DNA of 41,974 nucleotides, taken from NCBI GenBank assembly GCA_026712335.1, contig GCA_026712335.1_4695.1; one strand, written 5' to 3'. Shown piece by piece: positions 4,180 through 39,806 of the stretch. The position numbers were made by a program, and so were the translations under genes. The notes below the pieces were generated by a model that saw only the letters and a program-made list of their open reading frames with translations, had not been told where the DNA came from and ran no database searches. Numbering within the stretch: the first letter of the stretch is position 1; each line of letters opens with the position of its first letter. This stretch comes from Escherichia coli. Lineage in GTDB: Bacteria; Pseudomonadota; Gammaproteobacteria; Enterobacterales; Enterobacteriaceae.

Positions 4180-4202
4180 TAATACGACTCACTATTGGGA
4201 AG
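4180..4202 (+). promoter_or_regulatory. Phage RNAP promoter (phiOR-like)
   Basis: TAATACGACTCACTATT GGGAAG; 17/17 to the internal consensus. Confidence 0.8.
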
Positions 4203-4358
4203 GGCACCCTAAGACAACTTAAAGACACTTAAAGACTGCATATGCAAAGTGCATACTTAGTGACTAACTCTTAGAGACCTTACAGTGAGGGATGATGGTA
4301 ATAGTAATTACATCCCTACTATCAGTGTAACCATCAAGTATAACAAGGAGGACGCTCT

Positions 4359-4514
4359 ATGCGCTTACTATCCGTGCTCAAGACACTGGCAACGCATCGA
4401 GTGACCTACAAATTTCTCGTTGTACTTGCTGCTTCCATTGGCCTCGCATCTAGTGCTGAACACATCGGTGAACTGGAGACTCTGCTTTGTTCTCTACTCA
4501 CTTGTGTTTCTTAG
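4359..4514 (+). CDS. Small hypothetical protein (51 aa), gene 19.5 position
   Basis: ATG with strong RBS AAGGAGG; downstream of phiOR-like promoter; below the ORF-track size cutoff. Confidence 0.5.
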   Translation: MRLLSVLKTLATHRVTYKFLVVLAASIGLASSAEHIGELETLLCSLLTCVS

Positions 4515-4589
4515 ACTACTCATTGGCGCTTAGTGCGCTCTTAGTGATTATGGTCGATATTCATCTTCCCTATAATCACTGTAAGAAGT

Positions 4590-5060
4590 CAACTCTAAGA
4601 GTAACCCTTATGTACCCTCTATGGTCTACAGGGTCTCTTAGGGTCTCTCACGTAGTCTCACCTTATGATATAGCCTCTGTGGTTAACCTTATGAGACTTG
4701 ATGTACCCCTTTAAGAATCCTACAGAAAAATCTGAGTGAGTATCTCATAGTTCATAAACACCGAGTCCCCCCCCCTATGGCCTCCTTCAGTCCACCCAAA
4801 GAGCCTTCCTCTATGGTAACTCATGGTTTACCTGAAGTCAATCCTTTTGTGAGACATTGGGTTAACTCTAGGTGTAACCACTAGATATTGTGCTTAGTGA
4901 TACCTTATGACCACTATATGTAGTCCTCTCTGTGTCCCTATCTGTAAGTGACCCTAGAGTTATCACCTTATGTCACCTCCTTATGTCTATCCTTATGGCT
5001 GCCTATCCTTATGTTAACCTTCAGTCAGTGCCTTATGTTTATCAGTGACCAATAGGCTTC
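4590..5060. repeat. Terminal-region array of CCTTATG heptamers (at least 8 copies), analogous to the CCTAAAG array at T7 ends
   Basis: Read directly: ACCTTATGA, CACCTTATG, TCCTTATG (x3), GCCTTATG etc.; noncoding; contains a T7 left-end-like motif TCTCATAG at 4743. Confidence 0.7.
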
Positions 5061-5443
5061 GTCACAAAGGGAAATCACTATCTCACTCTGTTTAGCAGTC
5101 CCTGNCCCCCCCCCTATGGCCTCCTTCAGTCCACCCAAAGAGCCTTCCTCTATGGTAACTCATGGTTTACCTGAAGTCAATCCTTTTGTGAGACATTGGG
5201 TTAACTCTAGGTGTAACCACTAGATATGGTGCTTAGTGATACCTTATGACCACTATATGTAGTCCTCTCTGTGTCCCTATCTGTAAGTGACCCTAGAGTT
5301 ATCACCTTATGTCACCTCCTTATGTCTATCCTTATGGCTGCCTATCCTTATGTTAACCTTCAGTCAGTGCCTTATGTTTATCAGTGACCAATAGGCTTCG
5401 TCACAAAGGGAAATCACTATCTCACTCTGTTTAGCAGTCCCTG
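4767..5443. repeat. Direct duplicate 4767..5104 = 5106..5443 with N at 5105, beginning at a C9 homopolymer (scaffold overlap or doubled terminal repeat)
   Basis: Read directly; copies differ by one SNP (T at 4889 vs G at 5228). Confidence 0.85.
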
Positions 5444-5516: not shown

Positions 5517-5539
5517 TAATGCGACTCACTATTGAGGAA
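5517..5539 (+). promoter_or_regulatory. Phage RNAP promoter-like element (phiOL-like, origin-associated)
   Basis: TAATGCGACTCACTATT GAGGAA; deviates at -13 and +2. Confidence 0.6.
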
Positions 5540-5570
5540 TAGCTAATACTGGTCATCCTCTCTTTATGTC

Positions 5571-5600
5571 CACTATAAGAGACTATAAGAGACTATAAGA
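5571..5600. repeat. Tandem 10-bp repeat (C/G)ACTATAAGA x3 downstream of the phiOL-like promoter
   Basis: Read directly; position corresponds to the T7 primary origin region. Confidence 0.7.
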
Positions 5601-5640
5601 CCACTTAAAGAGAGACTTTGAGATTCTTTAAGATTGAGGG

Positions 5641-5669
5641 TTGACATTGATAATAGCTTATGAGACTAT
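5641..5669 (+). promoter_or_regulatory. Putative host sigma70 early promoter (A1-like)
   Basis: -35 TTGACA at 5641; 17-nt spacer; weak -10 GACTAT. Confidence 0.45.
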
Positions 5670-6267: not shown

Positions 6268-6292
6268 AGAGAAGCCTTTATGATAATCACTG
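6247..6292 (+). promoter_or_regulatory. Putative RNase III site (R0.3-like)
   Basis: AACTCAAGGTGACTC...GCCTTTATGATAATCAC hairpin, same family as T7 R0.3. Confidence 0.5.
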
Positions 6293-6780: not shown

Positions 6781-6826
6781 AACTCAAGGTCGCTCAATAT
6801 GAGTGGCCTTTCATGATTATCATTTA
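6781..6826 (+). promoter_or_regulatory. Putative RNase III site
   Basis: AACTCAAGGTCGCTC...GTGGCCTTTCATGATTATCA hairpin. Confidence 0.55.
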
Positions 6827-7332: not shown

Positions 7333-8418
7333 ATGAACTACACCGACATTCAGGCACGTCTGGAAATCATCAAGTCTCTTCCGATTAGTGACTTGGACAA
7401 GCGCCAGCCTCTTCTGGTTGCACTGGCTGCTGACATCGTGAACGGTGAAACATGCGATGGTAACGATACAAACGGGTCGCAGTGTCTTGAGTATCAGGAC
7501 TGGTGGAACACCTTGGGCGCTCTCATGCGTGATGCAGGTTTTCGTATGTTGGGTAATGGTCATTTTAGTGCGGCCTACTCGCACGAAATGTTACCGGGTC
7601 GAGTCATCAAGGTTGGCTTTAAGAAAGAGGATTCAGGCGCAGCATACACTGCATTCTGTAGGATGCACCAAGGCCGAGCGGGTATCCCTAACATCTATCA
7701 CGTAGCACGTCATGCAGGTTGCTATACGGTCGTACTGGACCGCTTACATAGCTGTGACGACGATAATTATGACCATGAGGTATACGCTGACCTCGCACGT
7801 TACTTTGTGGAGTCGGATTGCCATGACGCAAGCGACTTTGCACCGGGTGACTACGAGTTCATCGAGACTTGCAAAATGATTCGTGAGTTCTTCAAAGGGA
7901 TTGCATCTTTCGACATGCACAGCGGGAACATTATGTTCGACGATAACGATGTTCCGTACATCACTGACCCAGTCAGCTTCTCACATGACCGTGAACGTGA
8001 GGACGGTTTCCCTCTGGACCCTGAAGCACTGCTGGCCGAGGTCGAGGCTGTAGCGCAAGAACGCATGATTGAACGATGTCGCAACCGCAAGGCCAAGCGT
8101 GACCCTAACGGCTCCTTTCAGGTTAACCGCAAGGCCGCAATGAAACGCCGCAAGCGTAACCGTAAGTTACACGTCAAAGGTATGGCACAGTTTGTTAAAG
8201 GTCGCATCGAACGCAGGGCCATTGATAGGAACGAACGCCGCGCTGAGATGCTCATGGGGTCTGCATGGAATAACTTCTGGTTCCGCAATGGTCCCTCAGC
8301 GGCACGCAAGGTTGAACAAGTGAACGGCCTCAAGTGGCAACTAGGGGACCGCCTAGCAATCCAAGCGGGTCTCCCTCTGAACATTGACAAGTTACTTGAC
8401 GCACAACTGCAAGGCTGA
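7333..8418 (+). CDS. 0.7: Serine/threonine protein kinase / host shutoff protein gp0.7
   Basis: 361 aa; collinear with T7 gp0.7 (GNGHFSAAYSH...VIKVGFKKEDSGAAYTAFCRM...FDMHSGNIMF...VPYITDPVSFS). Confidence 0.93.
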   Translation: MNYTDIQARLEIIKSLPISDLDKRQPLLVALAADIVNGETCDGNDTNGSQCLEYQDWWNTLGALMRDAGFRMLGNGHFSAAYSHEMLPGRVIKVGFKKEDSGAAYTAFCRMHQGRAGIPNIYHVARHAGCYTVVLDRLHSCDDDNYDHEVYADLARYFVESDCHDASDFAPGDYEFIETCKMIREFFKGIASFDMHSGNIMFDDNDVPYITDPVSFSHDREREDGFPLDPEALLAEVEAVAQERMIERCRNRKAKRDPNGSFQVNRKAAMKRRKRNRKLHVKGMAQFVKGRIERRAIDRNERRAEMLMGSAWNNFWFRNGPSAARKVEQVNGLKWQLGDRLAIQAGLPLNIDKLLDAQLQG

Positions 8419-8491: not shown

Positions 8492-11354
8492 ATGACTAAC
8501 GTAATCAACGCACCAAAGAACGACTTCTCTGACATCGCTAACGCAATCATGCCATACAACATTCTGGCTGACCATTACGGCGCACAGCTTGCAGCTACGC
8601 AGTTACAGCTTGAGCACGAAGCGCACACCGAAGGCGAGAAGCGTTTTCTTAAGGCAATGGAACGTCAAATCAAAGCGGGTGAGTTCGGTGATAACGCAGT
8701 GGCTAAACCGCTCCTGTCATCTCTCGCACCGAAGTTTATCGAGGCGTGGAACGATTGGTTCACTGAAGTGGAAGCGAAGCGTGGCAAGCGTCCAGTAGCC
8801 TACAATCTGGTACAGAAGGTTGCACCTGAAGCTGCTGCATTTATCACACTGAAGGTCACACTCGCTTGCTTGACGAAAGAAGAGTTCACCAACCTGCAAT
8901 CGGTCGCCACTAAGATTGGTCGCAGTATTGAGGATGAACTGCGTTTTGGTCGCATCCGTGACGAAGAAGCGAAGCACTTTAAGAACCACGTACAGGAGGC
9001 ACTGAACAAGCGCGTTGGTATCGTCTACAAGAAAGCATTCATGCAAGCTGTAGAAGGCAAGATGCTTGATGCTGGTCAACTGCAAACCAAGTGGACCACA
9101 TGGACACCTGAAGAATCAATTCACGTTGGTGTGCGCATGTTGGAACTGCTCATTGGGTCTACTGGTCTCGTTGAGTTACACCGCCCGTTCGCTGGGAACA
9201 TCGAGAAGGATGGCGAGTACATCCAACTGACCGAACAATACGTTGACCTGTTATCTAAACGTGCTGGTGCACTGGCTGCAATCGCTCCAATGTATCAGCC
9301 TTGCGTGGTCCCACCTAAGCCTTGGACTTCTCCGGTCGGTGGTGGCTATTGGGCTGCTGGTCGCAAGCCTCTCTCTCTGGTTCGCACTGGTAGCAAGAAG
9401 GGACTTGAGCGTTACAACGATGTGTACATGCCTGAAGTTTACAAGGCCGTGAACATCGCACAGAATACTCCTTGGAAGATTAACAAGAAGGTTCTGGCAG
9501 TGGTCAACGAGATTGTGAACTGGAAGCATTGCCCGGTTGAAGATGTACCCGCTCTGGAACGTGGAGAACTCCCGGTCAAACCTGATGACATCGACACGAA
9601 CGAAGCGGCTCTGAAAGCGTGGAAGAAAGCGGCCTCCGCAATCTACCGCAAAGAGAAGGCACGAGTGTCACGCCGCATGAGCATGGAGTTCATGTTAGGT
9701 CAGGCCAATAAGTTCGCACAGTTCAAAGCTATCTGGTTCCCAATGAACATGGACTGGCGCGGTCGTGTGTATGNGAGAACTCCCGGTCAAACCTGATGAC
9801 ATCGACACGAACGAAGCGGCTCTGAAAGCGTGGAAGAAAGCGGCCTCCGCAATCTACCGCAAAGAGAAGGCACGAGTGTCACGCCGCATGAGCATGGAGT
9901 TCATGTTAGGTCAGGCCAATAAGTTCGCACAGTTCAAAGCTATCTGGTTCCCAATGAACATGGACTGGCGCGGTCGTGTGTATGCTGTGCCGATGTTTAA
10001 CCCGCAAGGCAACGACATGACCAAAGGCTTGCTGACGTTGGCTAAAGGTAAACCAATCGGTGTCGATGGGTACTACTGGCTGAAGATTCACGGTGCTAAC
10101 ACTGCTGGCGTGGACAAGGTGGACTTTGCAGAACGCATCAAGTTCATTGATGACAACCATGAGAACATCATGAGCGTTGCGGCTGACCCGATTGCTAACA
10201 CTTGGTGGGCCGAGCAAGATTCTCCGTTCTGCTTCCTCGCGTTCTGCTTCGAGTATGCAGGTGTGCAACACCACGGGATGAACTACAACTGCTCTCTTCC
10301 GCTGGCGTTCGATGGTAGCTGCTCCGGTATTCAGCACTTCTCCGCGATGCTCCGTGATGAGATTGGTGGTCGTGCGGTTAACCTGCTGCCAAGCAAAGAG
10401 GTACAAGACATCTACCGCATCGTAGCGGAACGTGTCAACGAGATTCTGAAGCAAGATGTAATAAATGGCACCGACAACGAAGTCGAAACCGTGACCAATA
10501 AGGACACAGGGGAAATCACTGAGAAGCTCAAGCTGGGCACGAAGGAACTGGCTGGTCAATGGTTAGCATACGGTGTTACTCGTAAGGAGACTAAGCGTTC
10601 CGTTATGACCTTGGCGTATGGTTCCAAAGAGTATGGCTTCCGTGACCAAGTGCTAGAGGATACAATTCAGCCAGCTATCGACGATGGCAAGGGCTTGATG
10701 TTCACTCAACCGAACCAAGCGGCTGGCTACATGGCTAAACTGATTTGGAACGCGGTAACGGTGACAGTGGTCGCTGCGGTTGAAGCAATGAACTGGCTGA
10801 AGTCTGCTGCTAAACTGCTGGCTGCTGAAGTCAAGGACAAGAAGACAAAAGAGGTTCTGCGCAAACGCTGTGCGGTACATTGGGTTACTCCTGATGGCTT
10901 CCCGGTCTGGCAGGAATACAAGAAGCCAGTACAGACACGCTTGAACCTGATGTTCTTAGGCCAGATTCGTCTACAGCCTACCGTGAACACCAACAAGGAT
11001 AGCGGAATTGATGCTCGTAAGCAGGAGTCAGGCATCGCACCTAACTTTGTCCACTCAATGGATGGTAGCCACCTGCGCATGACTGTGGTCCGCTCCAATG
11101 AGGTCTACGGTGTGGAATCGTTCGCACTGATTCACGACTCCTTTGGTACTATCCCTGCTGATGCTGGCAACCTGTTTAAAGCAGTGCGTGAAACGATGGT
11201 CAACACTTACGAAGAGAACGATGTACTTGCAGACTTCTATGAGCAATTTGCTGACCAGTTGCACGAATCACAGCTTGACAAGATGCCTGAGATGCCAGCT
11301 AAAGGTTCTCTGGACCTGCAAGAAATCCTTAAGTCAGACTTTGCGTTTGCCTAA
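8492..11354 (+). CDS. 1: Single-subunit DNA-dependent RNA polymerase gp1 (ORF split by duplication artifact 9564..9984; true length about 883 aa)
   Basis: ORFs 8492..9796 and 9765..11354 together are collinear with T7/T3 RNAP (PCVVPPKPW, WFPMNMDWRGRVYAV, ALIHDSFGT, C-terminal SDFAFA); removing one 211-bp copy restores frame. Confidence 0.97.
9564..9984. repeat. Direct duplicate 9564..9773 = 9775..9984 with N at 9774 inside the RNAP gene (scaffold overlap artifact)
   Basis: Read directly; copies identical; period 211 is not a multiple of 3. Confidence 0.92.
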
Positions 11355-11361: not shown

Positions 11362-11384
11362 TAATACGACTCACTATTGGGAGC
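11362..11384 (+). promoter_or_regulatory. Phage RNAP promoter (phi1.1A-like)
   Basis: TAATACGACTCACTATT GGGAGC. Confidence 0.8.
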
Positions 11385-11443
11385 CTTCGGGCTTCCTAAA
11401 CTTTAAGATACTTTAAGTTCTAACTTTAAGAGGAAACACAATC

Positions 11444-12001
11444 ATGTTTACTTTAATCACTTCAGTAGGCGCTCTCGTATCAACCATTCTTGCAGCAACA
11501 TACTATAATCGTTCAAAGGTATTTCTCACTAAGCTAATCAAAGAAGAGAAGAACTCTCATGCACTCAAAGAGAGACTTGAAGATGGTTGGCGAGAGAAGC
11601 AGGAACTAGCTGGTCGAATCCGTACCTTAGAGTTCGAACAACAATATGACATGTCGAACCAACGAGAACTCATCGAGCGTCTACGCGCTGAGGCAGTGGA
11701 GTACCGCAAGGAACTTAAAGAGGCAAAGAGTACCATCCGTGAGTACACTCACAGTGACATCACGTCTATCAAGTTTACTGCTCACATACCGGATGCTGGC
11801 TGGAAGCGCACTGAGTTCAAGCTGGGTCTTGGCTCATGTGGTAAGCAAGTCACTTGCCTACATTGGGTTGAACAAGCCGACCGCTATCTGCTGACACAGA
11901 CGTGCACTGATGGTGAGCGCAAAGAGTTCACCTATTATAAGAAAGATGTAGCGGGTCGCATTGAGATTGCACGTAAGGTTGCAGACAATACGACTCACTA
12001 A
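11444..12001 (+). CDS. Hypothetical protein (185 aa; N-terminal hydrophobic segment plus predicted coiled coil); gene 1.05 position
   Basis: ORF after the phi1.1A-like promoter; start MFTLITSVGALVSTILAATYY; no T7 counterpart; T3-lineage phages carry a gene here. Confidence 0.6.
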   Translation: MFTLITSVGALVSTILAATYYNRSKVFLTKLIKEEKNSHALKERLEDGWREKQELAGRIRTLEFEQQYDMSNQRELIERLRAEAVEYRKELKEAKSTIREYTHSDITSIKFTAHIPDAGWKRTEFKLGLGSCGKQVTCLHWVEQADRYLLTQTCTDGERKEFTYYKKDVAGRIEIARKVADNTTH

Positions 12002-12008
12002 TGGGAGA
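11986..12008 (+). promoter_or_regulatory. Phage RNAP promoter (phi1.1B-like)
   Basis: CAATACGACTCACTAAT GGGAGA, overlapping the stop of the upstream ORF. Confidence 0.75.
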
Positions 12009-12240: not shown

Positions 12241-12512
12241 TGGGTCGCTTATACAGTGGTAACTTAATAGCATATAAAGACGCTATCGAACGACTTAAAG
12301 AAGACCACGATGCAAATGTGGTCGTTGAGACTTATCGCTATGAGGACTTCGCACAGCGTCGGATGGTAGCCGGAGAGACACTTCGAGTGACCTTGCGGAA
12401 TGGCTTAATGCTGACCGCTAAGTGTTTCGAACAGTCAGACGAAGACGTTCGCTGTAATGCACAGACTGAATGGCTCCGTAAGGTTCACAGTGACCTGAAG
12501 CACTGGAAGTAA
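12240..12512 (+). CDS. 1.2: gp1.2 (host dGTPase inhibitor family)
   Basis: 90 aa; N-terminus MGRLYSGNL identical to T7 gp1.2, C-terminal DLKHWK similar. Confidence 0.8.
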   Translation: MGRLYSGNLIAYKDAIERLKEDHDANVVVETYRYEDFAQRRMVAGETLRVTLRNGLMLTAKCFEQSDEDVRCNAQTEWLRKVHSDLKHWK

Positions 12513-12532
12513 TACGACTCACTATTGCGAAA
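12510..12532 (+). promoter_or_regulatory. Phage RNAP promoter (phi1.3-like)
   Basis: TAATACGACTCACTATT GCGAAA. Confidence 0.7.
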
Positions 12533-12613: not shown

Positions 12614-13645
12614 ATGGAAATCACATTCAAGACTAACCCTTTTAAAGCTGTATCCTACGTTGAGTCTGCCATTAAGAAAGCACTCGACAAAGCTGGCTAC
12701 CTGATTGCTGACACTAAGCATGATGGTGTACGTGGTAACATCGTGGTTGACAATACGGCTGACTGCCTGTGGCTATCCCGCGTCTCCAAGACCATACCCG
12801 CGCTTGAGCACCTTAATGGGTTCGACCAACGCTGGGCTAATGTTCTCAAAGATGACCGCTGGATTTTCCCTGATGGCTTCATGCTGGATGGTGAACTGAT
12901 GGTCAAAGGCGTAGACTTCAACACAGGGTCTGGACTACTGAGAACCAAGTGGCTCAAGAAGACAAACTGTGGATTTGATATTGGTGGAGTAGAGCCTCTC
13001 AAGGGGAGTAAAGTAGACTTCTGCTTAGACCCTAAGAAACTTAAGGTTGTCCTGTATGCTGCTATGCCGTATCACGATATGGTAGAAGGCAAAGAGTACG
13101 GCGTTATGTCCCTCCTGATGCAAGAGCATGTGCGTTCCCTCATTCCGGTTCTTAGTGAACACTTCCCGGAAATCACTTGGGAACTATCTGAGGCCAAAGA
13201 AGTCTACGACATGGTAGAACTTCAGGAACTCTACGAGAAAGCCCGTGCCGATGGTCATGAAGGTCTGGTCGTCAAAGACCCGCTGGAAGTCTACAAGCGT
13301 GGCAAGAAGTCTGGCTGGTGGAAGATGAAGCCTGAGAATGAAGCTGATGGTGTCATCGTTGGACTCAATTGGGGTACTCCGGGTCTGGCTAATGAAGGTA
13401 AAGTGATTGGCTTCGAGGTTCTCTTGGAGTCCGGTCGTGTAGTCTCTGCCAACAACATTAGCCAAGCGTTGATGGATGAGTTCACTGCTGCCGTCAAACA
13501 TGCTGAGTCTGTGGGTATGGGTATGCCGTACACTGGCTTCGCCTGTCAGGTTGCCTACATGGAGGAAACTCCAGACGGCTCTCTGCGTCACCCATCGTTC
13601 GTTATGTTCCGTGGAACTGAGGATAACCCAAAGGAGAAAATGTAA
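12614..13645 (+). CDS. 1.3: ATP-dependent DNA ligase gp1.3
   Basis: 343 aa; adenylation motif KHDGVRG (KxDG); collinear with T7 ligase. Confidence 0.93.
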   Translation: MEITFKTNPFKAVSYVESAIKKALDKAGYLIADTKHDGVRGNIVVDNTADCLWLSRVSKTIPALEHLNGFDQRWANVLKDDRWIFPDGFMLDGELMVKGVDFNTGSGLLRTKWLKKTNCGFDIGGVEPLKGSKVDFCLDPKKLKVVLYAAMPYHDMVEGKEYGVMSLLMQEHVRSLIPVLSEHFPEITWELSEAKEVYDMVELQELYEKARADGHEGLVVKDPLEVYKRGKKSGWWKMKPENEADGVIVGLNWGTPGLANEGKVIGFEVLLESGRVVSANNISQALMDEFTAAVKHAESVGMGMPYTGFACQVAYMEETPDGSLRHPSFVMFRGTEDNPKEKM

Positions 13646-13827
13646 TGCTTATCTTTGACGAGAACGGTTGGAGAGTGTATCAACACCCACACCTGATGAT
13701 ATTCCACATATCAAAGTGGATGGAAGGAGATGACCGGAGAAGCTACGGGAGAACTTGGGACTACTTTACTGTCCATGAGTGCCATAGTATTAAGGAAGTC
13801 AAAGAGTACCTACGAAACAATATGTAA
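13645..13827 (+). CDS. Hypothetical protein (60 aa)
   Basis: ATG overlapping ligase stop (TAATG) with AAGGAG RBS; followed directly by the terminator hairpin. Confidence 0.5.
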   Translation: MLIFDENGWRVYQHPHLMIFHISKWMEGDDRRSYGRTWDYFTVHECHSIKEVKEYLRNNM

Positions 13828-13835: not shown

Positions 13836-13866
13836 GGTCAGTCCTTAACGGGGCTGGCCTTTTTGC
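13836..13866 (+). terminator. Rho-independent terminator (early terminator TE-like)
   Basis: GGTCAGTCC TTAAC GGGGCTGGCC stem-loop followed by TTTTT; same position as T7 TE after gene 1.3. Confidence 0.7.
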
Positions 13867-13870: not shown

Positions 13871-13893
13871 CTATACGACTCACTATGGAGGAA
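13871..13893 (+). promoter_or_regulatory. Phage RNAP promoter-like element (variant, class II)
   Basis: CTATACGACTCACTATG GAGGAA; lacks the T at -1. Confidence 0.55.
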
Positions 13894-13900: not shown

Positions 13901-13981
13901 ATGCTATTTCTAATTGCTGCTGCTATCTTTGCCACGTTTGCCTTCGTTATCATTGACGACAACTGCTGGCCGGATTGCTAA
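13901..13981 (+). CDS. Small hydrophobic peptide (26 aa)
   Basis: MLFLIAAAIFATFAFVIIDDNCWPDC; ATG 8 nt after GGAGGA; the longer track ORF 13730..13981 spans the terminator and promoter. Confidence 0.4.
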   Translation: MLFLIAAAIFATFAFVIIDDNCWPDC

Positions 13982-14002
13982 TACGACTCACCTATGGAGG
14001 AC
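13979..14002 (+). promoter_or_regulatory. Degenerate phage promoter-like element with a 1-nt insertion
   Basis: TAATACGACTCAC-C-TATGGAGG; insertion shifts the -12..-8 block. Confidence 0.35.
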
Positions 14003-14674: not shown

Positions 14675-14862
14675 GCACTCTGAATAAAGGGTCACTGGTA
14701 AACGGTGACAAGAAGTTCTTCGCTACGGTAGAAGGCCAAGGCCAATCGTTCGAAGTACCTGTGTTCGCTACGTCTCTTGAAGAGGCCAATGAGTTAGCTG
14801 AGTGGCAATACGTCCCTGCTGGCTTCGCTGTAACACGCATCCGTCCAGACCGTAAGGTTTAA
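14671..14862 (+). CDS. 2: Host RNA polymerase inhibitor gp2
   Basis: 63 aa; strong match to T7 gp2 (GSL...KKF.ATVE...[26 protein letters not shown]). Confidence 0.9.
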
Positions 14863-14882
14863 TAGGACTCACTAATGGGAGA
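14860..14882 (+). promoter_or_regulatory. Phage RNAP promoter (phi2.5-like)
   Basis: TAATAGGACTCACTAAT GGGAGA. Confidence 0.75.
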
Positions 14883-14929
14883 CACAGCGTTTCCCACTTT
14901 TAACTTTCAGAAACTAAAGGAGAATCATT

Positions 14930-15628: not shown

Positions 15629-16074
15629 TGGCTAAGGGTTATGCAGGTCGAGGCACTCGTGTGGGTGCCTTTCGCTCTGGCTTGGAGGATAAGGTAAGTA
15701 AGCAACTCGAAGGGAAGAACATTAAGTTCGACTACGAGCGCTGGCGTGTACCATATGTTGTTCCTGCAAGCAACCATACCTATTGCCCGGACTTCCTGTT
15801 ACCTAATGGCATCTTTGTGGAAACCAAAGGTCTGTGGGATAGTGACGACCGCAAGAAACACTTACTGATTCGTGAACAGTATCCTGAACTTGATGTGCGC
15901 ATCGTGTTCTCTTCAAGCCGCTCCAAGCTGTACAAAGGGTCTCCGACCAGCTACGGTGAGTGGTGCGAGAAGCATGGCATTCTGTTTGCTGATAAATTAA
16001 TTCCAGTTGATTGGCTGAAAGAGCCTTCTAAGGATGTTCCATTCGATAAATTTAAAGAGGTGAAGAAGAAATGA
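15628..16074 (+). CDS. 3: Endonuclease I (Holliday junction resolvase) gp3
   Basis: 148 aa; size, position and similarity to T7 gp3 (YERWRVPYV...YCPDFLLPNGIFVETKG). Confidence 0.92.
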   Translation: MAKGYAGRGTRVGAFRSGLEDKVSKQLEGKNIKFDYERWRVPYVVPASNHTYCPDFLLPNGIFVETKGLWDSDDRKKHLLIREQYPELDVRIVFSSSRSKLYKGSPTSYGEWCEKHGILFADKLIPVDWLKEPSKDVPFDKFKEVKKK

Positions 16075-16526
16075 GTAAGGTACAATTCAAACCACGCGCT
16101 GTGACAGAAGCAATCTTTGTCCACTGTAGCGCAACCAAGGCGTCCATGAATGTTGGACTGCGTGAAATCCGTCAGTGGCATAAAGAACAGGGCTGGCTTG
16201 ATGTAGGCTACCACTTCATTATTCGCCGTGATGGTACAATCGAAGAAGGCCGTCCGGTCGATGTCGTTGGGTCTCACGTTAAGGACTGGAACAGTAAGTC
16301 TGTCGGTGTGTGCCTCGTTGGTGGTATCGACGATAAGGGCAAACACGAAGCTAACTTTACGCCAGCACAGATGCACTCTCTTAAAGAGAAACTAGCAGAC
16401 CTGCTGGACATGTATCCAGATGCTGAAGTGAAAGCTCACCATGACGTTGCGCCTAAAGCGTGTCCGTCTTTCAACTTGAGTCGCTGGCTTAAGACTGGCG
16501 AATTAGTAACTAGTGATTGGGGTTAA
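16071..16526 (+). CDS. 3.5: Lysozyme / N-acetylmuramoyl-L-alanine amidase gp3.5
   Basis: 151 aa; near-collinear with T7 lysozyme (AIFVHCSATK...IRQWHKEQGWLDVGYHFII.RDG...HHDVAPKACPSF). Confidence 0.96.
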   Translation: MSKVQFKPRAVTEAIFVHCSATKASMNVGLREIRQWHKEQGWLDVGYHFIIRRDGTIEEGRPVDVVGSHVKDWNSKSVGVCLVGGIDDKGKHEANFTPAQMHSLKEKLADLLDMYPDAEVKAHHDVAPKACPSFNLSRWLKTGELVTSDWG

Positions 16527-16530: not shown

Positions 16531-16623
16531 ATGATGATTATTCACGAGATGGGCCTGTATGATTTGATTTATCGCCTCGCATTCATGCTGGCAATGGTCT
16601 ACATTCTGACCCGCAAGGATTAA
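16531..16623 (+). CDS. Small hydrophobic ORF (30 aa)
   Basis: MMIIHEMGLYDLIYRLAFMLAMVYILTRKD; compact spacing. Confidence 0.35.
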   Translation: MMIIHEMGLYDLIYRLAFMLAMVYILTRKD

Positions 16624-16643
16624 TAGAACTCACTATGGGAGGA
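16621..16643 (+). promoter_or_regulatory. Phage RNAP promoter-like element (variant) upstream of gene 4
   Basis: TAATAGAACTCACTATG GGAGGA; differs at -12, -11 and -1. Confidence 0.55.
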
Positions 16644-16693
16644 CCGAAAGGTTTCTCCCTTTGTTCGCTAAAATTGTATAAGGAGTAACCACT

Positions 16694-18503
<1,810 letters not shown>

Positions 18504-18647: not shown

Positions 18648-18670
18648 CAATACAACTCACTAATGGGACA
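18648..18670 (+). promoter_or_regulatory. Phage RNAP promoter (phi4.3-like)
   Basis: CAATACAACTCACTAAT GGGACA. Confidence 0.65.
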
Positions 18671-18713
18671 GACACTCTGTTCCCACTTATCAATCCACTT
18701 AAGGAGAATCACA

Positions 18714-19479: not shown

Positions 19480-19502
19480 CTATTCAACTCACTAATGGGA
19501 GA
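19480..19502 (+). promoter_or_regulatory. Weak phage RNAP promoter-like element
   Basis: CTATTCAACTCACTAAT GGGAGA; 12/17 to consensus. Confidence 0.4.
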
Positions 19503-24685: not shown

Positions 24686-26293
24686 ATGGCAAGCTCACAG
24701 AAACGTGAAGGCTTCGCTGAGAATGGTGCCAAGGCGGTGTATGACGCATTGAAGAACGACCGGAACTCCTATGAGACCCGTGCGGAAAACTGTGCGAAGT
24801 ACACCATCCCTTCGTTGTTCCCTAAAGACTCCGACAACGCCTCTACTGACTACACCACTCCGTGGCAAGCAGTTGGCGCTCGTGGCTTGAACAACTTGGC
24901 CTCTAAGCTCATGCTCGCTCTGTTCCCTATGCAGACGTGGATGAAGCTGACCATCTCTGAGTTCGAAGCGAAACAATTGGTTGCACAGCCAGCCGAACTA
25001 GCGAAGGTCGAAGAAGGTCTCTCAATGGTCGAGCGAATCTTGATGAACTACATCGAGTCCAACTCGTACCGTGTGACACTCTTTGAGACCCTCAAGCAGT
25101 TGGTCGTTGCAGGTAACGCTCTGCTCTACATTCCTGAACCTGAAGGTACTTACAATCCCATGAAGCTATACCGCCTGTCTTCTTATGTTGTCCAACGAGA
25201 CGCATTCGGCACGGTGCTACAGATTGTAACCTTAGATAAGACTGCCTATGCAGCACTTCCAGAAGACGTTCGAAACTCTATGGACTCCGGTCAGGAACAT
25301 AAAGGCGACGAAATGATTGATGTGTACACTCACATTTATCTTGCCGAAGAATCTGGTGAGTACCTCAAGTACGAAGAGATTGATGGTGTTGAAGTCGATG
25401 GTACAGATGCTTCTTATCCGGTGGACGCTTGTCCTTATATCCCGGTTCGCATGGTACGCATTGATGGAGAATCATATGGTCGTTCTTACTGTGAGGAATA
25501 CTTAGGTGACTTACGGTCCCTTGAGAACCTCCAAGAAGCTATCGTTAAGATGTCAATGATTAGTGCTAAAGTTATTGGCTTGGTTAACCCGGCTGGTATC
25601 ACACAGGTTCGTCGTTTGACCAAAGCACAGACTGGTGACTTCGTGTCTGGTCGTCCAGAAGACATCTCGTTCCTTCAGCTTGAAAAGGCCGCAGACTTCT
25701 CTGTAGCGAAAGCTGTGAGTGAACAGATTGAGGGCCGACTGTCCTATGCCTTTATGTTGAACTCCGCTGTGCAACGCACTGGTGAGCGTGTGACTGCCGA
25801 AGAGATTCGATATGTTGCATCTGAACTCGAAGATACCCTTGGTGGTGTCTATTCGATTCTCTCACAGGAACTTCAGTTGCCAATGGTTCGTGTCCTGCTG
25901 AAGCAACTTCAAGCGACCAATCAGATTCCTGAGCTACCGAAAGAGGCCGTTGAGCCTACTATCAGTACCGGGATGGAAGCACTGGGTCGTGGTCAAGACC
26001 TCGATAAGCTGGAACGTTGTATTGCTGCTTGGTCTGCTCTTGCTCCTATGCAGAATGACCCGGACATCAACATTGCGACCATTAAGTTGCGCATTGCGAA
26101 CGCTATCGGCATCGACACTTCCGGTATCCTTAAGACACCTGAAGAGAAACAACAGGAGATGGCTGAGGCTGCACAGGGTACGGCTATGGAGAACGCTGCT
26201 GCGTCTGCTGGTGCTGGTGCTGGTGCACTTGCCACTGCAAGCCCTGAGAACATGCAAGCGGCTGCTGAACAGGCTGGAATGGTTCCAAATTAA
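24686..26293 (+). CDS. 8: Portal (head-tail connector) protein gp8
   Basis: 535 aa; long identical stretches to T7 gp8 (IPSLFPKDSDNASTDY.TPWQAVGARGLNNLASKLMLALFPMQTWM). Confidence 0.98.
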   Translation: MASSQKREGFAENGAKAVYDALKNDRNSYETRAENCAKYTIPSLFPKDSDNASTDYTTPWQAVGARGLNNLASKLMLALFPMQTWMKLTISEFEAKQLVAQPAELAKVEEGLSMVERILMNYIESNSYRVTLFETLKQLVVAGNALLYIPEPEGTYNPMKLYRLSSYVVQRDAFGTVLQIVTLDKTAYAALPEDVRNSMDSGQEHKGDEMIDVYTHIYLAEESGEYLKYEEIDGVEVDGTDASYPVDACPYIPVRMVRIDGESYGRSYCEEYLGDLRSLENLQEAIVKMSMISAKVIGLVNPAGITQVRRLTKAQTGDFVSGRPEDISFLQLEKAADFSVAKAVSEQIEGRLSYAFMLNSAVQRTGERVTAEEIRYVASELEDTLGGVYSILSQELQLPMVRVLLKQLQATNQIPELPKEAVEPTISTGMEALGRGQDLDKLERCIAAWSALAPMQNDPDINIATIKLRIANAIGIDTSGILKTPEEKQQEMAEAAQGTAMENAAASAGAGAGALATASPENMQAAAEQAGMVPN

Positions 26294-26313
26294 TACGACT
26301 CACTAATGGGAGA
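26291..26313 (+). promoter_or_regulatory. Phage RNAP promoter (phi9-like, late)
   Basis: TAATACGACTCACTAAT GGGAGA. Confidence 0.8.
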
Positions 26314-26369
26314 GACAATACGTCCTCCCTTTGAGTTCAACTTTATGAAATCTAAAGGAGATAACAATT

Positions 26370-27284: not shown

Positions 27285-27307
27285 TAATACGACTCACTAT
27301 TGGGAGA
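27285..27307 (+). promoter_or_regulatory. Phage RNAP promoter (phi10-like, late)
   Basis: TAATACGACTCACTATT GGGAGA. Confidence 0.85.
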
Positions 27308-28662: not shown

Positions 28663-28708
28663 GAAACCCCTTGGGTGCCTTCGCGGGTGCTTGAGGGGTT
28701 TTTTTTCG
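28663..28708 (+). terminator. Late transcription terminator (Tphi-like hairpin plus U-tract)
   Basis: AACCCCTTGGGTGCCTTCGCGGGTGCTTGAGGGGTTTTTTTT; resembles T7 Tphi. Confidence 0.85.
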
Positions 28709-31745: not shown

Positions 31746-31768
31746 CAATACGACTCACTATTGGGGAG
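31746..31768 (+). promoter_or_regulatory. Phage RNAP promoter (phi13-like, late)
   Basis: CAATACGACTCACTATT GGGGAG. Confidence 0.8.
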
Positions 31769-32830: not shown

Positions 32831-35110
32831 ATGAGTAAGTTAGCTCAAGCATTGGGTAGCATGAATGCTCCGACTACCAGTCGTCTGCGTGGCACTGGTC
32901 GTATGGAAGTTAAGGCCGCAGCAGTCTATGAAGACCCTAAGTATGCCAAGAAGTCCGCACTGATTGGGACTGTGGGTAAACTTGCTGAGATGGGTGCGGA
33001 TGCCTATATGAAGTATGACCAGCACCAGAAGGACAAGGCAGACGAACGCTCAAACGAGATTATTCGTAAGCTGACTCCTGAACAACGCCGAGAGGCCATT
33101 AAGAATGGAACCCTGTTATATCAGGACGACCCATACGCAATGGAAGCACTTAAGGTGAAGACTGGTCGTAACGCTGCGTATCTCGTTGATGACGAGGTAG
33201 CACAGAAGGTTAAGAACGGTGAGTTCCGAACCCGTCAAGAGATGGAAGAGTTTCGTCATAGTCGCCTACAGGAATCCGCTAAGAATTATGCTGAACAGTT
33301 TGGTATCGACGAGACCGATGAGCACTACCAGAAGGGATTCAACTCTGACATCACCGAGCGTAACATTGCTCTCTATGGCGCTCATGATAACTTCCTGAGT
33401 GACCAAGCTAAGAAGGGTGCTGTCATCAACAGTCGCGTAGAGTTGAACTCCGTGTTGAACGACCCGGAAACCCTGCGCTCTCCGCATGCTGGTGAGTTCT
33501 TTGAGAACTACTTCAGTGCCGGATTGACTACAGGAAGTATCCCTAGTGATGACCAAGCGTTCACAATGATTAGCCAAGGTCTCTCTGACGTGGTTAACCG
33601 TGAGGGCGGTGGTCAGTTCCTGCAACAGATTGAGAACCGAAAGGTAAAACTGCATGGCAAGGAGACTACCTTCAAGGAACTGATGGGTGCCGAACAGTGG
33701 AACAATCTGATGGTTAAGGCTCAACATAATGAGTTCCAGTTGAATGCTAAGAAGACCGAGGCGTTCCAACTTAATGTGAACTCTGCGTTGAACCAAGAGA
33801 ACGTGAACACTGGCTGGGAACAGTTGCAATCCATAAAAGCTGAACTGGACACACTGCAACCGGGCGAAGAGATGACACCTGAACGTCAGGCGTTAATCAA
33901 TGCACAGACGCAGATGCAGGACAGGATGAAGCTGGAGACCGCTGAGTTAGCCAAGCAGATGGACAAGCAACAGAAGTCGATGAACAAGATGAACGTCATT
34001 GACGCACAGTTCCAGAAGCGGCTCAATGGTCAGTATGTGTCTACTGCGTATGGCGATATGCCTACCAACGAGAACACTGGTGAGTTCACCCATAGTGACA
34101 TGGTTAACTATGCGAACAAGAAGCTGGCTGACATTGACGCTATGGACATCCCTGATGCACAGAAGGACCGCATGAAGTTGGACTACCTCAAGGCTGACTC
34201 CGAGAAGGGCGCTTTCCGTACTGCGGTTGGTGAACTGATTGGTGACGCTGAGAAGGAATGGACGTCCGCTGTGATTAACGGGAAGATGCCAGAAGATGGT
34301 GGTGTGGCTCTTAATGCCCTGCGACGTGTTCGTAATGCTGACCCTGAGTTATTCGCTGCACTCTATCCTGATAAAGCCGAGATGTTCCTCACTATGGACA
34401 TGATGGACAACCAAGGGATTGACCCGCAGATTCTCTTAGATGCGGATAAGGCTCGTAAGTCTCTTACCAAAGAGATGCAGTACGAGGATGACAAGGCGTG
34501 GACTTCCCTGAAGAACAACTCCGAGTCTCCTGAACTGTCCCGTATGCCAGCTACATTGGATGCAGGTGCTCGTAAGATTTATGACTCCGTTAAGTACCGC
34601 ACAGGTAATGCTGATTCGGCAATGCAACAGGTCGATAAGTATCTCAAAGAGAACACAACGACTCTCACTGCTGATGACGTTGATGGTGATACCATTGGTG
34701 TCTTGACGAGAAACTCTTTGCGTGTGACTGATGACCCGGACTCTTGGAAACAAGGTAAGGACATTATCGACACAGCCGCTAAGAAACTCGCTGAGACTAA
34801 CCCTTGGGTTACTAACAAGCAACTCACTGTGTTCGAGCGTGGTGACTCTATCTACCTGATGGACACGACCGGACAGGTAAACATTCGGTATGACAAGCAG
34901 TTGCTCTCTAAGATGTATCAAGAGAACCAAGCGAAGCTGGATGAGGAAGCCCGTAATAAGGCACTCAAAGATGCCAACAAGCGAACCCTACATACACGAG
35001 CTATGAACCGCAAGCGTGAACGTGAAGCTAAGAAGCCTAAGCGCTCTGGCAGCATGTACGATAGCGTGAGTGGCAAAGGTATTCTGGATACGCTGACTGG
35101 TAAAGACTAA
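32831..35110 (+). CDS. 15: Internal virion protein C gp15
   Basis: 759 aa; position between gp14 and gp16; size close to T7 gp15 (747 aa). Confidence 0.9.
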   Translation: MSKLAQALGSMNAPTTSRLRGTGRMEVKAAAVYEDPKYAKKSALIGTVGKLAEMGADAYMKYDQHQKDKADERSNEIIRKLTPEQRREAIKNGTLLYQDDPYAMEALKVKTGRNAAYLVDDEVAQKVKNGEFRTRQEMEEFRHSRLQESAKNYAEQFGIDETDEHYQKGFNSDITERNIALYGAHDNFLSDQAKKGAVINSRVELNSVLNDPETLRSPHAGEFFENYFSAGLTTGSIPSDDQAFTMISQGLSDVVNREGGGQFLQQIENRKVKLHGKETTFKELMGAEQWNNLMVKAQHNEFQLNAKKTEAFQLNVNSALNQENVNTGWEQLQSIKAELDTLQPGEEMTPERQALINAQTQMQDRMKLETAELAKQMDKQQKSMNKMNVIDAQFQKRLNGQYVSTAYGDMPTNENTGEFTHSDMVNYANKKLADIDAMDIPDAQKDRMKLDYLKADSEKGAFRTAVGELIGDAEKEWTSAVINGKMPEDGGVALNALRRVRNADPELFAALYPDKAEMFLTMDMMDNQGIDPQILLDADKARKSLTKEMQYEDDKAWTSLKNNSESPELSRMPATLDAGARKIYDSVKYRTGNADSAMQQVDKYLKENTTTLTADDVDGDTIGVLTRNSLRVTDDPDSWKQGKDIIDTAAKKLAETNPWVTNKQLTVFERGDSIYLMDTTGQVNIRYDKQLLSKMYQENQAKLDEEARNKALKDANKRTLHTRAMNRKREREAKKPKRSGSMYDSVSGKGILDTLTGKD

Positions 35111-35133: not shown

Positions 35134-38100
35134 GTGGATAAGTATAACCCGAACGAATCGCATGAATATGATGCGTTATTTCAACAAGCTGCTGACACAC
35201 ATGGAGTCTCCTATGGCCTTCTTCGGAAGGTCGGTTGGGTAGAGTCCCGCTTTAAACCTACGGCTCAATCACCAACAGGGCCACGAGGTGTCATGCAGTT
35301 CACTAAGGCAACTGGTCAGGCTTATGGTCTCCAGAACGATGAGGACTTCGCTGACCCGGCTAAGTCCATTGATGCTGGTGCTCGTTACCTTGCAGACCTC
35401 GTTAAGAAATACAATGGGGATGAACTTAAAGCTGCCCTAGCGTACAACCAAGGTGAAGGGAGCAACGGTAAGCCACAACTGGAAGCCTACGATTCTGGTA
35501 ACTTTGCTGGCATCGGTGATGAAGGTCGTAACTATCTGCGTTCACTTCTGGATGTCGCTAAGTCACCTAAGAGTGGGGACATCGAGTCATTCGGTGGTAT
35601 CACCCCAAAGGGTAAAGGGATTCCGTTTGATGCTGCGATGAGTGGTATCGGGAAGAAAGGAAAGGTAACAACTGAACTCCCTGAGTCTCACGAAATGTCC
35701 TTTCAAGGTAAAGAACAGGCCGCTCCCAATCAGCCGTTCGGAAAAGATTATTGGGAAGCCAAAGGTACAACTCTTGACGAAGCAAACGAGCGTTCAACCT
35801 TCTTCGGATTCGGTAGTGCTGCTGAAGCAGAACTCTCAAACTCAACCTTGGGTGTTGCCTTCCGTGCTGGTAAGCGTGACAATGGTTTTGATGTGCTCAC
35901 TGATGTACTTCAACCGACACGGTTTAACAGCCACATTTGGTCGCCTGAAGAACTCGATAAGATTCGCAAAGAAGTGAAGAACCCTGCGTACATGAACGTT
36001 GTGCTTGGTGGTTCCGCTGAGAACCTTGACGAGCTAATCAAGATGGCTAATGAGAACTTCGAGTTGGACTCTAAGGCTGCTGATGCGGGTCTAGGTGCCA
36101 AGCTGTCTGCTGGTCTTATTGGTGCTGGTGTTGACCCGTTGACCTACGTTCCTATCGCTGGGACTGCGGCTAAAGGGTTCAAGCTGGTTAACAAGGCGTT
36201 GATTGTAGGTGCTCAAGCTGGTGCACTTAACGTTGCCTCTGAAGGTCTGCGTACATCGGTTGCTGGTGGTGATGCACATTATGCTGAAGCTGCCCTTGCT
36301 GGGATGTTACTGGCTGGTGGACTGACTTCTGTGGCAGATGGCGTTGCTGCGGGTCTCCGTAAGTCTGGTGCTGAACAGATTGAGAACCCCTTTGCTGCTG
36401 CACAGATGCGCTTTGAGACTCGTGAGACTGCACGTAACACTGGTGGTTATGACGCAAGCCGTATGCCTCCTAGTGAAGACCGAGTGTTCTCACAGCACAA
36501 CGGCGTTGAGTATGCACCACTGGAAACTGAACCGGGTGCTGTAGTGTTGCGTGATGGTTCCATTATCAGTGACACAAACTTGGCTAACCCGATGACAGCC
36601 AAAGAGTTCGAAGAAGTAGACCCTGAACGTGCTGCGTGGGGCTTGCCTATGCGTGGATTGAGTGAAATCGGCTTGAGGACTTTACGTTCTGAACATGCTG
36701 AAATCCGTGGTCTCGCTAAGGACTTAGTGCGTTCACCTACAGGTATGGAGTCAGGCTCACATGGTAAGTTTGGTTCCACTACATCGGACATCATAGAGCG
36801 ACTGCGCAGTCTCAATCATCGAACCTACAATAACCTATATGGTGCAATGAAGGAAGCGATGGCTGACCCTGAGTGGTCTGTTGGTATGTTCAAGAGTGGT
36901 GCTCAAGGTGCCCGTCAACAAATCTATCGTCGTACTAGTGAGGCTATCGAGAGACCTGAACTTCAGGCCAACTTGACCAAGGCAGAACGTAAGGTGATGG
37001 ACATCGTGAAGGAACACTATGACCTCAAGCGTGAGATGATGGAGAACCCGTCGATGTTCGGTAACAAGGCCACCTCTATCTTCCCTAACAGTCGTCACAA
37101 AGGGACTTACGTTCCTCATGTGTACTCACGGGAAGCCAAGCAGTTGTACTCACAGGCTCTTGGGGGCACTGATGGTTTACAGGAAGCAGTTGCTGCAAGC
37201 CTGATGGCATCATATCATGCACGCCCTGAAGTTAAGGCCCGTATTGATGAGATGCTGGCAGAGCAGTTACGGGTATCCAAACCAGCGGGTAAGACTGCGG
37301 GTACTACACCCAATAAGCCCTCTTCTGTCAACACAGCAAGTTACCAGATGAAACTGGACGATACAGCTACACAGGCAAGTGATAAGGTATTGGAACTAAA
37401 AGACGTCATGACCAACGCTGAGAAGCGAGTTGCGGACCGTGAAAGGAAACTCCAGAACTCCAAGGACAGACTGGCTTCGCATGAGGCTAAACTGAAGGAG
37501 TTGGAAGAAAAACTAGCTGCTAAACCTAATAGCAAAACCATTCCTGTTAAGATTGAGAGCCGGAAGCAGATGATTGAGACCCAGAAGTCTCACATCCGTA
37601 TTAACACAGAGCGTCTCGACTACATGAAAGGACAGGCTGCTAAGGTCCAAGACAGAATCACCAAAGCAACCGCCGAAGCTGAGGAAGCCGCCTCTGCTGC
37701 CAAAGGGCAGAAGACTACTGGTGGCGGTGAAGACACTATCGTTGGTGAAGCCACATCGGGTAATGCACCTCAATCAGTACAAGAGGTGACTATGGATATG
37801 GTCGAGAAGTACGCTATGGACAAGGCTTACGGTATTACGAAGACCGATGAGTTCAACTCTTCAAGTGTCATTGACGATAACATTGAGGGTCTCGTTGGGA
37901 TTGAGAACAACTCATTCCTTGAAGCCCGTAACCTGTTTGATTCTGACGTGCCAATCACTCTACCGAACGGGCAACAGTTCTCTGTGAATGACCTCCGTGA
38001 CTTCGATATGAAGCATGTGATGCCAGCATATGACCGCCGTGTTGATGGTGATATTGCTATCATGGGAGGCACAGGTAAGACTACTGCTGAACTCAAGGAC

Positions 38101-39782
38101 GCTATTATGGCTCTTGATAAGAAGTCTGAAGGTAAAGGTACAATGAAAGGTGAAGTGGAAGCACTTAAGGATGTCGTTAAGATTGNGTGAATGACCTCCG
38201 TGACTTCGATATGAAGCATGTGATGCCAGCATATGACCGCCGTGTTGATGGTGATATTGCTATCATGGGAGGCACAGGTAAGACTACTGCTGAACTCAAG
38301 GACGCTATTATGGCTCTTGATAAGAAGTCTGAAGGTAAAGGTACAATGAAAGGTGAAGTGGAAGCACTTAAGGATGTCGTTAAGATTGTCACTGGTCGTG
38401 CTCGACGCAATCAGGATACTGTAGGTGACACTATGGTCCGTGCTCTGTCCGATATGTCCTTCTTCACGAAGAACGCATATATGGGCTTGCAGAACCTAAC
38501 CGAAATCTCCGGTATGTTGCAGAAGGGTAATATCCGTGCGATGCTTCATGGCATTCCGGTACTGCGTGACTTAGCGTTCCGCAACAAGCCAGTCTCTGGT
38601 AGTGAACTCAAAGAACTCCACTCTATGGTGTTCGGTAAAGAGTTTGATGACTTAGTCCGACCTACTCGTCAAGACATCATTCAGCGACTCCGTGAGTCCA
38701 CTGATACACCTGATGTTGCCGCAAAGGTTGTTGGTTCTATCAAGCACACAACTCAAGAACTGGCGGCTCGCTCACCTCTCACCAAGTTCCTCAATGGTAC
38801 GTCAAACTACCTTCTGGACATGGCCCGACAGGGTGTGATGGGTGATGTGGTAACTCATGCTATCACTGGAAAGGGTGCCAACAAGTGGATTAAAGGTGAC
38901 ATGTTGAAGTCTGCGAGTATCTCTAAGGAACAGTGGGAAGGCATTCAGGCTCTCATCCGTGAGAACGTTACCCGTGGGGAAGATGGTAAGTTTACCTTCA
39001 AGGATAAGAAGGCTCTGGCTAATGACCCTCGTGCTATGGACTTGTGGCGTTTGGCTGACAAGGTTGCTGATGAAACGATGCTTCGACCTCATAAGGTTTC
39101 CTTACAGGATTCCCATGCGTTTGGTGCCACCGCTAAGTTAGTCCTTCAGTTTAAGTCGTTTGTCATCAAGTCGATGAACTCTAAGTTTATCCGCTCCGGT
39201 CACGAAGCCTTTAAGAACCAGCGTGCTATGGACATGGCGCTGACCTATGCAATCTCTGGTGGTATCGCTGGCTCCTACTATGTGGCACAGGCCCACTTGA
39301 AGGCTGCTGGTCTTCCTAAAGAGCAACAGAAGGATTACTTGAAGAAAGCTCTCGACCCGAAGATGATTGCCTACGCTGCGGCCTCCCGAAGTTCACACTT
39401 AGGGTCGCCTCTGAGTATCGCTAACTTCGCTATGGGTGCTGCTGGTTACGACCAAGGTCTTATGGTTCGCTCTACGATTCTACCGAAAGGTGATGACAAG
39501 CGTGAGCGCAACAAGGCGGTGACTTCTCGTGACATGGGTGATTCCATTATGGGCGCTATTGGTGAACAGGTTCCTGCTCTTGGCTTCGCTGGTGCTGCTC
39601 TAGCTACTGGTCGAAATGCTTATGGTGTCCTTACGGCTCCTAACAAACCGACCGAGCGTGAGATGATGACTGGCTTAATGAATGCTCACCGAGAGATGAT
39701 TCCTAACGATCCAATCTCTCAACAGATGCTCATTAAGTTCTATGAGGCCAACGGTGTTCACATTAAGGCTGACAAGAAGTAA
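35134..39782 (+). CDS. 16: Internal virion protein D gp16 with N-terminal lytic transglycosylase domain (ORF split by duplication artifact 37984..38388; about 1481 aa after de-duplication; GTG start)
   Basis: ORFs 35134..38190 and 38187..39782 together are collinear with T7 gp16; SLT motifs ESRF...MQFTKAT...AYNQGEG; C-terminus YEANGV; removing one 203-bp copy restores frame. Confidence 0.95.
37984..38388. repeat. Direct duplicate 37984..38185 = 38187..38388 with N at 38186 inside gp16 (scaffold overlap artifact)
   Basis: Read directly; copies identical; period 203 is not a multiple of 3. Confidence 0.92.
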
Positions 39783-39783
39783 A

Positions 39784-39806
39784 CAATACGACTCACTATT
39801 GGGAAG
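39784..39806 (+). promoter_or_regulatory. Phage RNAP promoter (phi17-like, late)
   Basis: CAATACGACTCACTATT GGGAAG. Confidence 0.8.

Follow-up and report, generated by a model that had tools for sequence, protein, structure and literature searches.

The 41,974-nt stretch analysed here (contig GCA_026712335.1_4695.1 of NCBI GenBank assembly GCA_026712335.1, listed under Escherichia coli; hereafter the window) represents a phage genome of ~40.1 kb assembled in circularly permuted form, and it carries 16 short elements that we regard with high confidence as the promoters of the phage's own RNA polymerase. By megablast, its first 25 kb are 92-95% identical to Escherichia phages nasanit, CarlSpitteler, P483, 285P and BA14, of the genus Berlinvirus. 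From position 1, the gene 17/17.5 region is followed by gene 19, by the genome end and start (~4770-5440), and then by a T7-like gene order that leads back to gene 17. A mismatch scan of the whole window with the 23-mer consensus TAATACGACTCACTATT/GGGAGA (the slash precedes +1) found 16 sites with 0-6 mismatches, all on the + strand, and none on the - strand. The core GACTCAC hardly varies among the 16 sites, positions -4 to -1 read TATT, TAAT or TATG (phi1.6 is taken up below), and +1 is G in 16/16. Each element is co-oriented with all long open reading frames (ORFs) and lies 0-90 nt past the upstream stop codon, ahead of the next gene (16/16).

These sites are sharply separated from the rest of the window. 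A 21-mer search allowing up to 3 mismatches returned 12 sites, all on the + strand, where 100 dinucleotide-preserving shuffles gave an expectation of 0.00. A weight matrix trained solely on the 16 annotated promoters of phage BA14, a different genome, scored the 16 sites at 26.4-38.6 bits; the best other position on either strand reached 9.3 bits, and the background in the window had a mean of -44.7 bits (sd 11.5). Given the gap between 26.4 and 9.3 bits, we consider the set complete and sharply bounded. The core alone, ACGACTCACTA, searched with up to 2 mismatches, gave 18 matches against 13.1 expected, no different from chance, and significance is therefore limited to the full-length element. 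An indel-tolerant fuzzy regular expression recovered just 4 sites, a consequence of its non-overlapping best-match behaviour, and was not used. An earlier sequence-only reading had listed 16 promoter-like 23-mers, and both its count and its coordinates were reproduced by the mismatch scan; the weight-matrix scan it suggested, run with the BA14-trained matrix, isolates exactly the same 16. The pattern it gave as shared by all (T or C, then AATACGACTCACTA, then T or A, then TGGGA) holds at 4180, 11362, 11986, 26291, 27285 and 39784, while the other ten sites depart from it by 1-6 differences. A T7 promoter from a cloning vector was ruled out as a source, as none of the sites (0/16) reads TATA/GGG and the entire window is phage genome.

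Two elements lie at the genome ends. [quoted passage not shown] Short tandem ACTATAAGAG repeats are present at 5540-5600, just downstream of phiOL; repeat arrays like these are typical beside the terminal repeats of T7-group genomes.

The elements from phi1.05 to phi4.7 lie ahead of the genes for DNA metabolism. Located 8 nt past the gene 1 stop codon is phi1.05 (11362-11384; TAATACGACTCACTATT/GGGAGC; BA14 phi1.05 5645-5667), followed by phi1.1 (11986-12008; CAATACGACTCACTAAT/GGGAGA; 37.2 bits; BA14 phi1.1 6270-6292) and, upstream of the ligase gene (12614-13645), by phi1.3 (12510-12532; TAATACGACTCACTATT/GCGAAA; 35.2 bits; BA14 phi1.3 6796-6818). A TE-like intrinsic terminator on the + strand (13836-13859; a 10-bp stem, then a T run; BA14 TE 7987-8008) separates the ligase gene from phi1.5 (13871-13893; CTATACGACTCACTATG/GAGGAA, with G at -1; 28.9 bits; BA14 phi1.5 8020-8042). 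Beyond it lie phi1.6 (13979-14001; TAATACGACTCACCTAT/GGAGGA; 26.4 bits, the weakest of the 16; BA14 phi1.6 8128-8150) and phi2.5 (14860-14882; TAATAGGACTCACTAAT/GGGAGA; 36.0 bits; BA14 phi2.5 9069-9091). The ORF of gene 3.5 (amidase/lysozyme; 16071-16526, + strand; BA14 gp3.5 10281-10736 by BLAST offset) comes before a phi3.8-like promoter upstream of gene 4 (16621-16643; TAATAGAACTCACTATG/GGAGGA, again with G at -1; 27.0 bits; an unnamed 'phi' in BA14, 10827-10849). The last two of this group are phi4.3 (18648-18670; CAATACAACTCACTAAT/GGGACA; 32.6 bits; BA14 phi4.3 12791-12813) and phi4.7 (19480-19502; CTATTCAACTCACTAAT/GGGAGA; 30.7 bits; BA14 phi4.7 13625-13647).

The remaining elements precede the virion genes. 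The first late promoter, phi6.5 (23744-23766; CAATACGACTCACTATT/GAGAGG; 34.8 bits; BA14 phi6.5 18157-18180), is followed by phi9, which overlaps the gene 8 stop codon (26291-26313; TAATACGACTCACTAAT/GGGAGA; 38.1 bits; BA14 phi9 20748-20770), and by phi10, which precedes the major capsid gene, reproduces the consensus TAATACGACTCACTATT/GGGAGA perfectly and has the top score of the set (27285-27307; 38.6 bits; BA14 phi10 21740-21762). After gene 10 there is a Tphi-like terminator on the + strand (28663-28702; an 18-bp stem, then a T run; BA14 annotated terminator 23119-23156). Two further late promoters complete the set, phi13 (31746-31768; CAATACGACTCACTATT/GGGGAG; 34.6 bits; BA14 phi13 26217-26239) and phi17, which overlaps the gene 16 stop codon upstream of the tail-fibre gene (39784-39806; CAATACGACTCACTATT/GGGAAG; 36.6 bits; BA14 phi17 33556-33578). 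The tail-fibre gene itself (gene 17) contains diverged tandem repeats at 40351-40769, built on units of 21/42/126 nt. Copies of 61-77 nt share 61-74% identity, and the repeats encode a segment rich in A-[ND]-R-[SA] that presumably belongs to the fibre shaft.

Hairpins are a recurrent feature of the predicted transcripts, 7/16 of which open with one formed by pairing of GGGA or GGAG at +1 with a downstream TCCC (11379-11396, 14877-14895, 16638-16658, 18665-18683, 26308-26329, 39801-39822 and 5534-5560). Their minimum free energies range from -8 to -12 kcal/mol (z -1.8 to -4.1 against shuffles), and they resemble the 5' stem-loop in the T7 phi10 leader.

By BLAST offsets, all 16 sites (16/16) correspond one to one in position with the 16 phage promoters that the BA14 record (EU734171) annotates as 23-mers, namely phiOL, 1.05, 1.1, 1.3, 1.5, 1.6, 2.5, an unnamed promoter before gene 4, 4.3, 4.7, 6.5, 9, 10, 13, 17 and phiOR. 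This mapping bears out the proposal that the elements serve the polymerase of a phage related to T7 as its promoters. The two phages have in common the number and order of promoters, the consensus TAATACGACTCACTATTGGGAGA, G at -1 in phi1.5 and phi3.8, and CACCTAT in phi1.6; their sequences agree in showing CACTATT/GGGA and CACTAAT/GGGA, with CACTATG/G in phi1.5 and the promoter before gene 4. They differ only by single bases at individual sites: phiOL has TAATG in the window and TTATA in BA14, phi1.3 has TATT rather than TAAT, and phi4.3 begins CAATACA rather than AAATAGA. The G at -13 of the window's phiOL is also carried by phiOL of 285P.

The same promoter sets, with T at -1, are present in Berlin, nasanit, 285P and the Helsettvirus fPS-21, whose record annotates its sites as promoters. 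Repeating the scan with -1 ignored and reading the sites without gaps, we found T at -1 in 14/16 sites of the window and G in 2/16 (13871 and 16621), T in 14/16 and G in 2 in each of BA14, nasanit and 285P, T in 12/14 and G in 2 in Berlin, and T in 12/12, with no other base, in fPS-21. A at -1 was not found in any site of these six genomes (0/16 in the window), and the Teseptimavirus signature of T7 proper, A at -1 in TATA/GGG, is absent from 16/16 window sites. The G at -1 of phi1.5 is kept in BA14, Berlin, nasanit and 285P. T at -1, present at 12-14 of 14-16 sites in each of the five Berlinvirus genomes, is thus a consistent family trait, as had been proposed; it is the consensus of the genus, common to the sister genus Helsettvirus. 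In the Yersinia fPS phages of that genus the consensus with T at -1 is the same, and in fPS-21 12/12 sites read TATT followed by G; fPS-21 differs in having 12 promoters, none with TAAT, and a polymerase 83% identical to that of the window.

Comparison with T7 places the difference at a single position. The T7 class II/III promoters (TAATACGACTCACTATAGGGAGA) are identical from -17 to -2, show the same alternation of T and A at -2 and occupy the same map positions. They differ in their number (17, against 16 here) and at -1, where the A expected from the T7 consensus is indeed present in 16/17 promoters, against T in 14/16 here; the T7 exception is phi2.5, TATT/AGGGAA (annotated +1 positions, NC_001604). 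Promoters just downstream of gene 1 in T3 and K11 have C at -1, and Table 1 of PMC11475235 lists CACTATT/AG-type promoters in the more distant phages Jarilo, Mysterion and RHEph02. Together these show that -1 is variable across the wider family.

The window also encodes the cognate polymerase. Gene 1 (8492-11354, + strand), for the single-subunit phage RNA polymerase, is interrupted as written, falling into two frames (8492-9796 and 9765-11354) at an N at 9774 that is followed by an exact 210-nt copy (9775-9984) of 9564-9773. Deletion of 9774-9984 (211 nt) restores an open frame of 2652 nt, or 883 codons, whose product shares 98.8% identity with BA14 gp1 and 76% with T7 RNA polymerase (RNAP). 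In T7 numbering, R96, K98, W422, R746, N748, R756 and Q758 are all conserved in the repaired protein. We take R96 and K98, in the AT-rich recognition loop, and R746, N748, R756 and Q758, in the specificity loop, to be promoter contacts (Cheetham and Steitz 1999; Rong et al. 1998). Conservation of these residues matches the identity of the DNA to T7 over -17 to -2.

The break in gene 1 is one of six single-N junctions in the window (340, 1243, 5105, 6041, 9774 and 38186), each flanked on both sides by the same 202-338 nt, exactly at four junctions and with 1-2 mismatches at two. In addition, the final ~465 nt repeat the window start at 99.4-100% identity (1-339 recurs at 41510-41848, and 341-691 at 41624-41974). 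The N-flanked repeats look like unmerged contig overlaps, assembly artefacts by which the window would be lengthened falsely by ~1.4 kb; genes 1 and 16 would owe their apparent frameshifts to them. No promoter site is overlapped by an artefactual duplication or an N junction (0/16).

Based on these observations, we conclude with high confidence that the 16 elements together make up the full set of promoters for the single-subunit RNA polymerase of a BA14/Berlin-type (Berlinvirus) relative of T7. Under the proposed mechanism, the early region, including gene 1, would be transcribed by the host polymerase, and the gene 1 product would then bind each 23-bp element, with positions -17 to -13 read by the AT-rich recognition loop and -12 to -5 by the specificity loop. 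TATT or TAAT at -4 to -1 would be melted, and we infer that the first transcribed base is the G lying 17 bp beyond the start of the element. The layout is that of T7, T3 and BA14, with phiOL and phiOR at the genome ends, phi1.05-phi4.7 ahead of the DNA-metabolism genes, phi6.5-phi17 ahead of the virion genes, and the TE-like and Tphi-like terminators after the ligase gene and gene 10. The more deviant early and middle sites would be the weaker promoters and the first to be shut down, for example through the action of gp3.5 lysozyme on the polymerase, by analogy with T7.

The promoter set, the T at -1 and the layout were already known from GenBank annotation (BA14, fPS-21) and from the literature. 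The sequence-only reading had presented the family as a departure from T7; this is not new, as the fPS consensus was reported in 2018 to be one nucleotide away from that of T7 (Salem and Skurnik 2018, PMC5923468). In Pectobacterium phage PP74, a Berlinvirus like the window phage, the promoter was predicted as TAATACGACTCACTATTGGGAA in a 2024 study (Biotechnol J, PMC11475235), which reports that the polymerase-promoter pair is highly active both in a coupled cell-free assay and with purified enzyme in vitro. The same consensus thus drives transcription in vitro; what was assayed there is a single consensus promoter, not graded natural variants. Other Berlinvirus papers (PMC8427288, PMC13063978, PMC7693777 and PMC8762354) give at most software promoter counts, and no paper turned up when the literature was searched for CACTATTGGGAGA verbatim.

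Grading among the sites is consistent with a strength hierarchy like that of T7, where early and middle promoters are likewise more deviant than late ones. The late promoters (6.5, 9, 10, 13, 17 and OR) hold ranks 1, 2, 3, 5, 8 and 9 of 16 by weight-matrix score and exceed the early and middle promoters (Mann-Whitney one-sided p = 0.0055), while the six lowest scores belong to phi4.3, 4.7, 1.5, OL, 3.8 and 1.6. The idea of graded variants put forward earlier fits these scores, with a contrast softer than that of T7. Two details of that description did not hold: deviation at -17 is not a trait of early and middle sites, as three of the five named late promoters (23744, 31746 and 39784) have C there, and not all early and middle sites are deviant, the early site at 11362 being perfect through +5. 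Relative strengths, as we infer them from sequence and from T7, would follow this grading. Background from T7 fits such a scheme, in that gp3.5 lysozyme binds the phage polymerase and damps weak class II promoters more than strong ones, so that these are shut off first; the gene 3.5 orthologue in the window may have the same regulatory role.

Several points weigh against this interpretation of the promoter set. Gene 1 is frameshifted as written, and its restoration as an artefact relies on our reading of the N and the exact 210-nt repeat. A weight-matrix score is no measure of strength, and the contrast between late and early sites is blurred by phi1.05, phi1.1 and phi2.5, which reach the scores of late promoters. 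Nor are the late promoters mutually identical, as the six of T7 are. Finally, the four weakest sites (phi1.5, phi1.6, phi3.8 and phiOL) could be poor or conditional promoters.

Among the alternatives, one is that phiOL, phiOR and phi1.05 act chiefly in replicating the DNA or processing concatemers and not in gene expression, which we judge to be somewhat short of an even prospect. Neither phiOL nor phiOR has an adjacent large gene, and both lie beside the terminal-repeat region; phi1.05 is followed directly by an AT-rich stretch with repeated ACTTTAAG motifs (11385-11443). The T7 promoters phi1.1A/B, phiOL and phiOR are associated with origins, and the T3 record annotates its primary replication origin immediately past its own phi1.05. 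Because that origin lies at the equivalent place, 11385-11443 is likely a replication origin, which transcription from phi1.05 would prime. A role in replication is nonetheless compatible with promoters of the phage polymerase, to which it would add a second role rather than offer a competing one.

A second alternative accepts the promoters and holds that T at -1 is functionally meaningless, a low-information position that has drifted in this clade, so that these promoters would be interchangeable with those of T7. We consider this possible, at rather less than even likelihood. On the A-1T variant TAATACGACTCACTATTGG, T7 RNAP yields 73.3 RNA/DNA reads, ~43% of the wild-type mean of 169 (one barcode; Komura 2018 S2). 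In its specificity loop, the window polymerase has the same contact residues as T7. The phi2.5 promoter of T7 itself, the C of the T3 and K11 promoters just past gene 1 and the G of two conserved Berlinvirus promoters are further signs of tolerance at this position. Set against these is its constancy, as -1 is never A and is T in 12-14 of 14-16 sites per genome in five Berlinviruses and in 12/12 sites of fPS-21. Moreover, PMC11475235 states that 'even a single nucleotide change', possibly that to the T7 promoter, abolished PP74 polymerase output, and PMC13600099, citing Mertens and Hausmann 1982, describes at second hand the BA14 system as functionally different from those of T7 and T3.

The converse, that the -1 base pair (T here, A in T7) is a specificity switch insulating Berlinvirus from T7-type transcription, seems to us doubtful, and slightly less probable than the drift just described. 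Its pointers are the reported loss of PP74 polymerase output and the 1982 cross-transcription result for BA14, the latter known at second hand. Since neither the DNA from -17 to -2 nor the contact residues of the specificity loop differ from T7, discrimination at -1, if real, may be read by another part of the polymerase. One candidate is the intercalating hairpin, which differs from that of T7 by Q232P, N233F, V236N, V237I, G238E and Q239K. Clade-fixed positions are another: six polymerases of phages with T at -1 show 26 fixed differences from T7, T3 and K11, including A247T, H300G, H772R and Q786M, a candidate list drawn from 9 sequences.

The variant at 13979 deserves separate mention, as a sequencing error there had been named as a possible objection to the promoter family. 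Relative to phi1.5 (CAC-TATGGAGGAA), phi1.6 has one extra C, after -5, and its ungapped reading gives C, T and A at -4, -3 and -2. The annotated phi1.6 of BA14, TAATACGACTCACCTATGGAGGA, matches window 13979-14001 at every base; the 25-mer GCTAATACGACTCACCTATGGAGGA is identical in BA14, nasanit and 285P, and ACGACTCACCTATGGAGG is present in 9 separate ~40 kb IMG/VR viral contigs. The '1-nt insertion' is therefore a conserved allele, and an error in the sequence is ruled out. That CACCTAT instead arose by error in sequencing or assembly, or is a decayed copy without function, is thus very improbable: the site has the lowest score of the 16 (26.4 bits) and assembly artefacts do occur elsewhere in the window, but it lies far from every N junction, and its conservation across diverged genomes argues for function, without proving promoter activity. 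The start regions of phi1.5 and phi1.6 double as Shine-Dalgarno sequences with an ATG 8-13 nt on, GGAGG being the ribosome-binding site in phi1.5 and GGAGGA that for the ATG at 14009 in phi1.6. Those of T7 phi1.5 and phi1.6 likewise double as ribosome-binding sites, with GGAGGT and GGAGAC.

For the biology of this phage, the practical value of these observations is one of annotation and carries little weight for discovery: the transcription map of the genome is fixed, and the seeming breaks in the frames of genes 1 and 16 can be explained as assembly artefacts. If the -1 position alone were to make the Berlinvirus and T7 polymerase-promoter pairs orthogonal, it would be of interest for the construction of orthogonal expression systems.

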